Shown: in pieces, positions 12,885 through 16,891 of the stretch
Position numbering within the stretch: position 1 is the stretch's first letter
Layout of the letters: each line of letters starts with the position of its first letter
Assembly: GCA_964389655.1 (NCBI GenBank)
Contig: CAYMED010000014.1
Location: 1-64,000, forward strand
Length of the DNA: 64,000 bases
Source: an uncultured Candidatus Poseidoniales archaeon
GTDB lineage: Archaea; Thermoplasmatota; Poseidoniia; Poseidoniales; CAYMED01
Direction: 5' to 3'
The notes under the pieces: model-generated
Databases searched by the model: none
Told to the model about the DNA's origin: nothing
The model's input: only the letters and a program-made list of their open reading frames with translations
Made by a program: the position numbers and the translations under genes

Positions 12885-13001
12885 ATTACGCCGAAACATG
12901 GGGGACCTATGAACACTGCACCTCATATTTTCAAAAAAATGTTCAAAGGTTTGAATATATTATTCCGGCAAGAATTTGAGGCGGAGGGCTGTCGGCGCGT
13001 C

Positions 13002-13565
13002 ATGACTGATGTAGTGATGACCACGACACAAGGAAAAATAAAGATTGAATTATTCACTAAAGAATTACCAATCACCACTGGCAGCTTCCTTTCTTTAGTC
13101 GATGAAGGCTACTTTACCGGATTACATTTTCATCGCGTGATTGAAGGCTTCATGATTCAAGGTGGCTGTCCTCATAGCAAAGATGCTAAAAGCAACCGAG
13201 CGGGGACAGGAGGACCCGATCCTGGCTCATCATTCACAACCGCAGATGGTCGACAGATGAATCGTTCCAAAGGTGGTCGTGGAGGAAACATTCCCGATGA
13301 GCACACTTCTCAGCATAGTAACGAGCCAGGGACCCTGTCTATGGCAAATACTGGTTCTCCAGACAGCGGAGGATCGCAATTTTTCCTGAACACCAAGCAC
13401 AATAATTTCCTCGATTGGTTCGACAAATCTAGCCCATCAAAACATCCTGTATTTGGGAGAGTGACCGAAGGAATGGATATTGTCCGGAAAATCGAGACCA
13501 CGCCAACAGATCGACAAGATAGGCCAAAGACACCACAACAGATTATTTCGGTGAAACGTGCTTAA
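13002..13565 (+). CDS. Cyclophilin-type peptidyl-prolyl isomerase
   Basis: FHRVIEGFMIQGG, LSMANTG, GSQFF and HPVFGRV motifs. Confidence 0.96.
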   Translation: MTDVVMTTTQGKIKIELFTKELPITTGSFLSLVDEGYFTGLHFHRVIEGFMIQGGCPHSKDAKSNRAGTGGPDPGSSFTTADGRQMNRSKGGRGGNIPDEHTSQHSNEPGTLSMANTGSPDSGGSQFFLNTKHNNFLDWFDKSSPSKHPVFGRVTEGMDIVRKIETTPTDRQDRPKTPQQIISVKRA

Positions 13566-13566
13566 T

Positions 13567-14133
13567 TTACGATTTACACGGCAATGGTAGATCACCAAAT
13601 TTTTCAACCATTAGGCGTGTCCTTAAATGGGCATAAATTCTCTTAAATGGAGGCCCATGAGGACGTAACCAATCTTGAAGATGATGATCATCGATTTTGG
13701 TTTGTTGAAATTTATCAGCACTTATCTTAGTACCTGGCTCAAAGCCTTCTTCGGCAAGGCGGGCCCAAACAATATGGTGAGAAAGTTCGTGGGCACATAC
13801 TGCCGCTACATGTCGCCTCCAATCTGAAGACTTAAATGATGAAATTTGGGGATCCTTTTCAAATCGCTTATATTCGGAAAAAATACCTTTTGAGGGACCT
13901 CTAACCGCACAAGCATGGAGATTTAGAGATATGCGAGGTGGGTGCCACCTCGCTTCTGAGCGCGCATATTTCCCGTCACCCCATTTCATTAGTAGGCGTA
14001 ATTGATCAATATCAAAGGGCGAACTAAGAAAAGTTAGAGACGCTGATGCTGCATCTTCCAGGCAGGATCGAGCCCAAGCCTCTACATCCTCAGTTTGGGG
14101 TGGCACAATATGTTTGAGGGGCTCTTCTTTCAT
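13567..14133 (-). CDS. SprT-like zincin metalloprotease
   Basis: HELSH (HExxH) plus downstream HGPPFK-x-I (SprT-type third ligand). Confidence 0.65.
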   Translation of the reverse strand: MKEEPLKHIVPPQTEDVEAWARSCLEDAASASLTFLSSPFDIDQLRLLMKWGDGKYARSEARWHPPRISLNLHACAVRGPSKGIFSEYKRFEKDPQISSFKSSDWRRHVAAVCAHELSHHIVWARLAEEGFEPGTKISADKFQQTKIDDHHLQDWLRPHGPPFKRIYAHLRTRLMVEKFGDLPLPCKS

Positions 14134-14147
14134 CGTTTTTTCCACAA

Positions 14148-14165
14148 CATAATTAATAAGTTATG
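14148..14165. promoter_or_regulatory. TATA box (TTAATAAG) flanked by inverted repeat CATAA-N8-TTATG in the divergent sprT-like/fumC promoter
   Basis: Read directly; the TATA lies 22-29 nt upstream of the fumC ATG. Confidence 0.5.
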
Positions 14166-14181
14166 ATTTGTTGGCGGAGGT

Positions 14182-15771
14182 ATGGTAAAACATCGGGCAG
14201 GGGACCGAAGAATTGTCAGCATTAGTTTGCCCGAGGATTTGGCACAAATGCTCGACAAAAAAGTCGGAAGAGGGCGGAAGGGTGGGCGCTCTGCAACGAT
14301 TGCGCAATTGATCCGAAAGGGGATTGAGGGGGCTGCTGTAATGCCAATCCCCACCATATCAAGGAAGGAATTTGTAACGTCTGCTGAAACTGTTCGTGTT
14401 GAAAAAGACAGCATGGGTGAACTTGATGTCCCTGGCGACCGTTATTGGGGGTGTCAAACTGCAAGATCCATGATTAATTTTGATATCGGTGAAGATTTAA
14501 TGCCGGGTGGGGTAATTCGAGGATTTGGTATTCTGAAGCAAGCAGCCGCCTCCACAAACAAAAAATTAGGGGAAATTGGGGAGGAAATCGCCGACTTGGT
14601 GGTTGCTGCTGCGAAAGAAGTTGCAGTGGGTGAGTTAAACGGCCACTTCCCCCTGAAAATTTGGCAGACGGGGTCTGGAACTCAAACGAATATGAATGTA
14701 AATGAAGTTATTGCGAACCGAGCAATTGAACTGTCGGGGGGGAAATTAGGAACAAAAAATCCGGTGCACCCAAATGACCACGTTAATAGGGGGCAATCAT
14801 CCAATGATACATTTCCCACGGCGATGCATATTGCCGCAGCTGAAACATTTACGCATCATTTATTGCCAGAGGTGCGGTTTCTCAGAAGTTGTTTATCAGA
14901 AAAAGCCAATGCATTTCACAAAATAACAAAACTTGGGAGGACCCATTTGATGGATGCGGTGCCCCTAACGTTGGGGCAAGAATTTAGCGGGTATATCTCC
15001 CAGTTGGATGCAAATATCACGCGTATTGAATCCACGTTAGATGATTTATTTGATTTGGCGTTGGGGGGAACTGCTGTTGGCACGGGGCTCAATGCACACC
15101 CACATTTTGCTGAAGATGTTGCTGCAAAGATTGCTGAATACACCGGCCTCCCATTTCGTTCTGCAGATAATAAATTCGCGCAGCTCGCAGCACACGATGC
15201 TGTAGTCGCCGCCTCAGGATCACTCAATACTTTGGCGGCTAGTTTGATGAAAATTGCAAATGACATCAGGTGGTTGGGGTCCGGGCCACGATGTGGCTTG
15301 GGTGAATTGACATTGCCTGAAAATGAGCCCGGTTCATCCATTATGCCTGGAAAAGTCAACCCAACACAGGCTGAAGCAATGACAATGGTGTGCTGCCAGG
15401 TAATGGGGAATCATGTCGCAATAACGATCGGAGGGAGTATGGGGAATTTTGAGTTAAATGTGTTCAAGCCCATGATTATTCACAACTTGTTACATTCTTG
15501 TCGGATTTTAGCAGATACTTGTCGTGCTTTTGGGGAGCGATGCGTGAAAGGGATTGAACCTATTGAGAAAAACATCAAGTCACATCTGGAAAATTCACTG
15601 ATGCTAGTTACTGCACTCAACCCACATATCGGTTATGACAACGCTGCAAAGATTGCGAAGTATGCTCACGAAAATGGGGTGACATTGAAAGAAAGCGCTA
15701 TTGAATCTGGTTTGCTGACAAGCGCTCAATTTGATGAATGGGTTGACCCATTGGTTATGACTAATTCGTGA
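14182..15771 (+). CDS. fumC: Class II fumarate hydratase with N-terminal ribbon-helix-helix domain
   Basis: [20 protein letters not shown] and signature [15 protein letters not shown]; N-terminal [15 protein letters not shown]...[10 protein letters not shown]. Confidence 0.95.
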
Positions 15772-15772
15772 T

Positions 15773-16891
15773 TCAATTGCTTTTTTCTCGAAGGGAGCGA
15801 AGCTTGGCGCGCATCATTTCTCTGCGCTGCACATCCCCGTCGGGTTGCCTAGCCTCCTTGTTAGAGGATATTCGGCGCTCAAGCATTGTTGATTCAATTA
15901 TCAAAACGGCCCCATGAGAGCCGCCCACCACCATTCTTTTTCCCGAGGAAAAAAGTGATTCAATATCTTCACTACACGAAAGGAAGGATATAATCTCCCC
16001 AACCTCATTGACGATGGTGATCTTACCACCTGGGTGGGAAAGCACAATTGTATTTTTTGAATATATACGCGGGCCAAGCATGGCACCATGAGTTGGGAGT
16101 TCCAAGGAAGTCATCATTTCGCCATTTATTGAATATAATGAACCGTGTTCATCAACTGCAATTATGTGCCCACTTATTTGAACAAGGGATATGATCATCG
16201 AATCCACCAATTCAACTTCTTCATTGGTGGGCAAAAGGTGTAATTTTCCGCCAGACGTGCCGAGATACATTGTCGCAGCCGATGGGCACAAAGTTGTGCC
16301 AGGGGAATTGCCCGCCTCGATGTGGTTGAATCCAGCGGAGGAAATGTCCCCCATCCCTCCTTCCCACACAAGCACGCCACATCTCGGGCGTGCAAGGCTA
16401 AAGAACACGTCATCCCCGAGGGTAGACACGTCCCACATTCTTTCGCTAATTGTGTGGACCTCTAGAACCTCACCCGCAGGGGATATGTGCCAGATTCCTG
16501 CTTCCATATAATCCCCATACTCAATATCCCACACCGCTGATGTGGCAATAACTGAACCATCAGGTCGGGGAACAATGTGGTCCGACAAGCCTTCTAATTC
16601 AACCATCCAAAGCAGTTCGCCTGATTGGGATTCCAAACATGCAATGGACAAACCAAGTGCTAAAAACACATGAGTGTTTGATGGGACTATTCGATTGATA
16701 CGATCGATGAATGTAATCGACCATAATTCATCACCATCACCATTCCACCGAGTTACAAGCCCCTCATGGGATCCAGCAATCGTATGATCGCCATCTAAAA
16801 CAACAGCTGATACCGAAGAGCCAATATTGCGAACCGCCCATGCTGCATTGTCAATCTTAATCTCGGGCGCGGACAGGTTTACCCACTCCAA
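15773..16891 (-). CDS. WD40/PQQ-like beta-propeller protein
   Basis: Repeated G-x-x-LW and GxxxG-x-V/L blade patterns; charged C-terminal helix. Confidence 0.7.
   Translation of the reverse strand: MEWVNLSAPEIKIDNAAWAVRNIGSSVSAVVLDGDHTIAGSHEGLVTRWNGDGDELWSITFIDRINRIVPSNTHVFLALGLSIACLESQSGELLWMVELEGLSDHIVPRPDGSVIATSAVWDIEYGDYMEAGIWHISPAGEVLEVHTISERMWDVSTLGDDVFFSLARPRCGVLVWEGGMGDISSAGFNHIEAGNSPGTTLCPSAATMYLGTSGGKLHLLPTNEEVELVDSMIISLVQISGHIIAVDEHGSLYSINGEMMTSLELPTHGAMLGPRIYSKNTIVLSHPGGKITIVNEVGEIISFLSCSEDIESLFSSGKRMVVGGSHGAVLIIESTMLERRISSNKEARQPDGDVQRREMMRAKLRSLREKSN

Follow-up and report, generated by a model that had tools for sequence, protein, structure and literature searches.

Results

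Architecture of the fumarase locus

The window, by which we mean the whole 64,000-nucleotide stretch of Poseidoniales DNA analysed here, carries a fumarase frame whose product falls into three parts: a ribbon-helix-helix (RHH) domain (residues ~8-50), a variable linker predicted to be disordered (residues 51-70) and an intact class II fumarase (residues 71-529; Table 1). Position 14148 opens the inverted repeat CATAA-N8-TTATG; the frame itself starts at 14182 (Table 1). In public records that cover the N-terminus, the protein is named just "class II fumarate hydratase".

Pfam places Lyase_1 at residues 79-409 (E 2e-108, 362.7 bits) and FumaraseC_C at residues 475-528 (90.6 bits), both above their cut-offs, and the best solved-structure matches to the core are class II fumarases, which score 540-659 bits (659 bits to PDB 6n1m) against about 410 or less for aspartases. 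The signature loop GSSxMPxKxN is intact at residues 384-394. Residues 2-460 of E. coli FumC pair, over the full length, with residues 69-527, and residues 1-68 are therefore extra relative to ordinary fumarases. By these alignments the core is a class II fumarase (FumC), closer to fumarases than to aspartases, and by homology RHH-FumC would be a tetramer with fumarate hydratase activity.

The gene is flanked upstream by a cyclophilin-type peptidyl-prolyl isomerase (12909-13565, + strand; E 3e-47) and downstream by a 372-aa frame with weak PQQ/beta-propeller-like matches (15773-16891, - strand), neither of which has an evident link to fumC. The product of the divergent neighbouring frame gave no match in a Pfam search at E<=1; its HELSH motif is followed by PHGPPF, a pattern that recalls SprT-like metalloproteases. 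This neighbour starts 36 nt from the fumC ATG, and thus shares in this genome the dyad region described below.

Table 1. Coordinates of the features at the fumarase locus, in positions of the window
Feature	Position	Strand	Remarks
Divergent neighbour ORF	13567-14145	-	192 aa; HELSH (HExxH) motif
Inverted repeat of the first-pass annotation: CATAA (14148-14152), N8, TTATG (14161-14165)	14148-14165	.	Present
Candidate operator, degenerate copy ATAATTAATAAGTTATGAT	14149-14167	.	Overlaps presumed TATA box
GGAGG	14176-14180	+	One base before ATG; absent in relatives
RHH-fumarase ORF	14182-15771	+	529 aa
RHH domain, residues 1-50	14182-14331	+	Pfam, alignment, AF2 models
Variable linker, residues 51-70, contains Met54	14332-14391	+	Column identity, pLDDT
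Class II fumarase (FumC) core, residues 71-529, and stop codon	14392-15771	+	Pfam, solved-structure match

An RHH domain at the fumarase N-terminus

The first-pass annotation had read the N-terminus as a CopG/NikR-type RHH domain fused in frame to an intact FumC, and profile matches, predicted folds and the FumC alignment together support this reading. From orthologues collected by protein search and in 40 related genomes we aligned 28 N-termini, every one of which matches RHH_1 at E<=1. Scored singly, five of ten orthologous N-termini reach the Pfam cut-off of 20.5 bits (20.6-22.5 bits), and the window copy matches over residues 12-48 at 17.7-17.9 bits (E 0.003), slightly below that mark. The domain is made up of a basic arm (KHRAGDRR), a beta-strand (RIVSISLP), helix 1 (residues 18-28), a GRGRKGG loop and helix 2 (residues 36-49). 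Across the 28 sequences R10, S13 and S15, the polar residues of the strand, vary little or not at all, its buried positions 12, 14 and 16 vary conservatively among I, V, L and M, and G35-R36-S37, which opens helix 2 with the G-x-S/T/N cap feature, is invariant.

AF2 models, whether of the isolated domain or of the full-length protein, contain the ~45-residue strand-helix-helix topology, with an extended segment at residues 9-17 and helices at 18-28 and 36-49/50, at pLDDT about 70-80; linker residues 50-67 fall below 50 and are predicted to be disordered. When the RHH model was compared with the PDB by Foldseek, about 40 of the best 50 chains were RHH proteins (NikR, MazE, CopG, Arc, ParD, AmrZ), with no match at E<=0.001 and none individually significant. 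Similarly, a PDB profile search with the RHH alignment gave nothing significant, its best match being an RHH antitoxin at E 0.76. A two-copy complex prediction scored 0.24 (mark 0.42) and counts neither way.

Among 27 full-length orthologues, column identity is 0.74 over residues 1-50, reaching 0.88 in the strand, 0.28 in linker residues 51-70 and 0.82 in the core. Because their conservation comes near that of the enzyme core, residues 1-50 must be both translated and constrained, one of the points on which the first reading had staked its claim. Taken together, profile, predicted fold and conservation indicate that the N-terminal extension is an RHH domain under purifying selection, and we consider it likely that this domain binds DNA. 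Very improbable, by comparison, is an extension that does not bind DNA at all, being either an oligomerisation or stability module or an untranslated stretch with the real start near residue 54-70. The sub-threshold RHH_1 score of the window copy and a G-rich stretch 8 nt upstream of Met54 would suit such a reading; against it, residues 1-50 are nearly as conserved as the core, the DNA-facing polar residues of the strand vary little or not at all, the GRS helix cap is the same throughout, no internal Met is conserved, and the fused forms lack the Met before VRIE that RHH-less orthologues use.

That G-rich stretch, GAGGGGG, had also led to the suggestion that the ATG at 14341-14343 (Met54) yields an RHH-less isoform. 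The stretch is present, but the comparison with relatives lends the isoform no support: Met54 is unique to this genome, and a linker Met of any kind occurs in 8 of the 27 orthologues, at positions that do not align. The RHH-less orthologues themselves begin at a Met 3-5 residues before VRIE-x-DTMG. The GGAGG ahead of the fumC start is unlikely to be a ribosome-binding (Shine-Dalgarno) site, since a single base separates it from the ATG, which is too close, and relatives lack it.

Two other RHH proteins are encoded in the window's genome, both without an enzyme fusion. One is a NikR-like protein of 148 aa (G000:C19:124-570, - strand), and the other, of 122 aa (G000:C9:28273-28641, + strand), has an N-terminal RHH_1 match and looks like two tandem RHH repeats.

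Distribution and loss of the fusion

Strong matches to the RHH-domain profile (E<=1e-25) are confined, among 301 genomes sampled across the phylum, to the Poseidoniales, which we take to be Marine Group II (MGII) with its families Poseidoniaceae and Thalassarchaeaceae. No strong match lies outside the order in this sample, where the weak ones are free-standing NikR-like proteins of about 135 aa. Within the order the domain was found in the window's own family and in 38 of the 63 genomes of the two large families (20 of 21 in one family; 18 of 42 in its counterpart, including one weak match). A search of 1.8 billion cluster representatives returned, as strong matches, just short fragments of such fusions, the weak matches being ordinary small RHH proteins.

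Ten of 38 orthologous fumC loci lack the RHH domain, and in genomes without the fusion the domain profile detects no separate RHH copy. On a tree of the enzyme core, whose root was not inferred, the RHH trait requires at least five changes, four of them on well-supported branches. The simplest reading of this pattern is an old fusion that would have been lost repeatedly, at least four to five times.

Some loci carry intermediate or misleading forms of the domain. At one (L025, G009:C1), a decayed in-frame RHH relic, RFVFTIPQSLRGLEGKG, lies upstream of the Met of an RHH-less fumarase, and in a genome of the same genus (G273, L049) the RHH, though divergent, can still be recognised and has a short loop and linker. 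An apparently lone 47-aa RHH frame in G005 was rejected as the contig-end piece of an RHH-fumC gene, and RHH matches in frames of 433-447 aa in two other Thermoplasmatota proved to be ordinary NikR-like genes within long high-GC open frames.

A conserved element at the fumC promoter

The first-pass annotation had seen a candidate operator in the repeat CATAA-N8-TTATG around the TATA box. By itself this repeat is weak and near chance: perfect 5+5 repeats with a spacer of 0-12 occur in 32% of the genome's upstream regions, and those with a spacer of exactly 8 in 3.9%. The repeat is nevertheless present, and its right arm and spacer lie inside a conserved element, of which the CATAA arm is not a conserved part. 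Comparison among relatives bore out the fusion, which is order-wide, and replaced the repeat by another conserved unit, the dyad TTAATAA-N-TWATTAA, imperfect except in one genus. This dyad is the core of an order-wide element, TTTATTAATAA-S-TAATTAA, that starts 29-33 nt before the ATG in the RHH-bearing loci of many genera; its consensus, written out, is TTTATTAATAACTAATTAA, with a candidate site of 19 bp. In the window the core dyad reads TTAATAA (14153-14159), G, TTATGAT (14161-14167), with arms that match at 5 of 7 positions.

The element is specific to fumC by several measures. The window site scores 13/15 against TTAATAANTWATTAA, and a score of 12 or more is reached in 3 of 1342 upstream regions of the genome, two of these three being the fumC site, once in each strand direction. 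With at most one mismatch, the 17-mer TTATTAATAANTAATTA occurs once per genome, always at fumC, in 13 relatives from 5 genera, and identity is 0.88 inside the motif versus 0.41-0.48 in its flanks. An exact scan of about 186,000 species' genomes found at least 16 matches 11-13 nt before an RHH-fumC start, all in MGII-type records, some of these genomes overlapping the 13 relatives of the 17-mer count; among the other 103 matches listed there is no MGII-type record. A candidate operator on the gene's own promoter, as first proposed, therefore stands in the form of a conserved, fumC-specific dyad at the TATA box.

The position of the element is suggestive as well, since it covers the presumed TATA box and the bases that directly follow it. 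The centre of this box is about 26 nt from the start codon, and by what is known of archaeal promoters such a distance suggests that the fumC mRNA is leaderless or nearly so. This reading is built on fumC loci alone, because a general promoter consensus derived from crude gene calls gave no usable TATA signal. If fumC is leaderless, the right half of the dyad would lie between TATA and the transcription start site, which is where archaeal repressors typically act. A shared bidirectional promoter was rejected as a general cause of the palindrome, the upstream gene being divergent here alone and co-directional in most relatives.

Additional copies of the element occur at some loci. At L035 (G034:C34), 90 nt upstream of fumC, a ~45-nt tandem duplication that includes the A/T element gives two candidate operators. 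In G010 and G022 the element is accompanied, 50-85 nt upstream of it, by a second A/T site that is weaker. The sole other near-match to the 17-mer in the window's genome (G000:C4:24112-24128, L054:613-629; one mismatch) lies in an A/T-rich spacer of ~270 nt, at ~95 nt from the ORF that follows, and probably reflects chance.

Is the element the operator of the RHH domain? None of the ten RHH-less orthologues has it, which speaks for such a role; a simple 5' deletion, however, would also give the joint loss of domain and motif, and a tree-aware test of RHH against motif reduces the comparison to 4-5 independent pairs, with p between 0.125 and 0.5. Moreover, in some lineages (part of g5, g12, g14) the RHH domain is near-identical yet the right half of the dyad is missing. 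These lineages carry instead TTTAWTAA-NN-GCCGATTNGGG, a bare TATA, or the TATA part followed by unrelated sequence. The first of these is a second conserved promoter type, located about 30 nt upstream of fumC at L006, L044 and L048 (part of g5) and at L020 and L033 (g12). At L033 and L038 (g12) an inverted second TTAATAA-like arm follows 11-12 nt downstream, and at L020 this arm runs in direct orientation.

A/T palindromes easily arise at TATA boxes, and one in that position might belong to the promoter itself or be recognised by a different factor. On this reading the element would serve as an atypical TATA/initiator region or be bound by some other protein, with the RHH domain acting elsewhere, and the near-identical domains with and without the right half-site (L006 vs L002) speak in its favour. 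We nonetheless judge it unlikely, given that the element occurs once per genome and at fumC only, both among the relatives and in the at least 16 MGII matches listed, that it is missing from all RHH-less orthologues, and that the locus shows no tie to any further dedicated DNA-binding protein. A looser form of the dyad (<=2 mismatches), sought in five good genomes, showed no excess over a reversed-pattern control, and with no excess of weaker sites in these five genomes no regulon beyond fumC is seen.

A different N-terminal module in a sister family

A sister family of the same class (f4) has a FumC homologue in seven of eight genomes, at 45-48% identity and in frames of 554-572 aa. These proteins (L072-L077; for example L076:267-1907, + strand) bear an N-terminal extension of ~95 aa (M..YTSIRVTKEV...GHVRFP.YG..CP) that is conserved within the family, shows no similarity when compared by hhalign with the RHH alignment of the Poseidoniales (probability 0.1) and found no Pfam match and no lead in an Atlas search. 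At their fumC promoters a pair of TATGCA-N3-TGCATA-type boxes stands immediately ahead of TATA (110 nt upstream examined at L076). A different module accompanied by different palindromes at its own promoter would fit the idea of autoregulation.

Discussion

Using a combination of profile searches, structure prediction and comparative analysis of promoters, our work suggests how a central metabolic enzyme might take part in the control of its own gene. With its own promoter bearing a dyad specific to the fumarase locus, the fumarase probably also switches off its own gene, and we propose that RHH-FumC is an autorepressing bifunctional enzyme akin to PutA and NikR, a reading to which we assign a probability of roughly 0.58. 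RHH proteins bind DNA as dimers, with an intertwined two-stranded sheet placed in the major groove, and FumC is a tetramer. We hypothesize that, once FumC has assembled into its tetramer, the flexible 20-residue linkers would allow its four RHH half-domains to pair, so that each tetramer would present two RHH dimers, by analogy with NikR. These dimers would bind the A/T dyad over TATA and the stretch from TATA to the transcription start of fumC, where they would hinder TBP, TFB or RNA polymerase, such that the amount of assembled fumarase would feed back on fumC transcription. In this model the pairing of the RHH domains, their binding to DNA, the site that they would recognise and the repressing effect are all inferred.

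A more elaborate version of the same architecture would be a trigger enzyme switched by its metabolites, in which fumarate or malate at the active or an allosteric site of FumC alters operator binding and so conveys TCA-cycle status to transcription. The analogy to PutA and NikR extends to this version, as does the support for DNA binding; the variable, predicted-disordered linker of 20 residues, however, offers no obvious allosteric path, and in five genomes no further sites rise above the control rate. We regard it as possible but doubtful. If true, abundant ocean archaea would read TCA status through the enzyme itself, and perhaps act at further sites or on damaged DNA.

Conversely, the RHH domain might serve location rather than transcription, tethering the fumarase to the chromosome for a local supply of fumarate or malate, for example in a DNA-damage response. 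In B. subtilis, DNA damage induces the class II fumarase, which co-localises with DNA and without which the damage response fails, and the same is true of yeast and human cells (PMC5711358); here a DNA-binding domain would be hard-wired into such an enzyme, and the lack of a wider regulon in the five genomes would agree with this. One conserved site, specific to fumC and placed over its own TATA box, nevertheless suits an autoregulator and not a general tether, and several lineages have lost the RHH domain while keeping the enzyme. A tether thus seems to us quite improbable, and autogenous repression remains the reading that we prefer.

Our literature search found no paper on an RHH-fumarase, nor on any TCA-cycle enzyme with a fused DNA-binding domain, and we know of no such TCA-cycle enzyme. 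Enzymes that double as transcription factors are, to our knowledge, few, with PutA the sole well-studied one based on an RHH domain. The order-wide fusion occurs in Poseidoniales, abundant uncultured archaea of the ocean. RHH-FumC and its candidate site of 19 bp are of a size that makes in vitro work possible without cultivation, and the repeated natural losses of the RHH domain provide ready-made controls. The fusion also has a bearing on the reason why bacterial and eukaryotic class II fumarases act at DNA.

Comparison with known systems places RHH-FumC among several better-studied proteins. The fumarases that act in the DNA-damage response of B. subtilis, yeast and human (PMC5711358) belong to the same enzyme class but lack a DNA-binding domain of their own, and the link to them is one of analogy. 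Ordinary FumC, such as that of E. coli (PDB 1FUO), matches end to end, including the signature loop, but is without the N-terminal domain, and the ten RHH-less orthologues in Poseidoniales are of this plain type. PutA, the classic RHH trigger enzyme, known from E. coli, Salmonella and Pseudomonas putida, joins an N-terminal RHH domain to an active metabolic enzyme and represses its own put promoter. The first-pass annotation invoked it as a precedent, and fairly so, since in RHH-FumC, too, one polypeptide combines an N-terminal RHH domain with an intact enzyme. The two differ in that PutA is a flavin-dependent proline dehydrogenase/P5C dehydrogenase acting on a bacterial sigma-70 promoter, whereas RHH-FumC is an enzyme of the fumarate-lyase fold at an archaeal TATA promoter, and the PutA switch, which works through FAD reduction and membrane binding, has no visible counterpart in RHH-FumC. 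NikR carries an N-terminal RHH domain on a tetramerising C-terminal domain, and the two RHH dimers of its tetramer bind a dyad with two half-sites. Its C-terminal part is a small metal-sensing domain and not an enzyme, and we know of no sensing function in FumC. By both profile and fold, proteins of the NikR type are the nearest free-standing relatives of the fumarase RHH domain.
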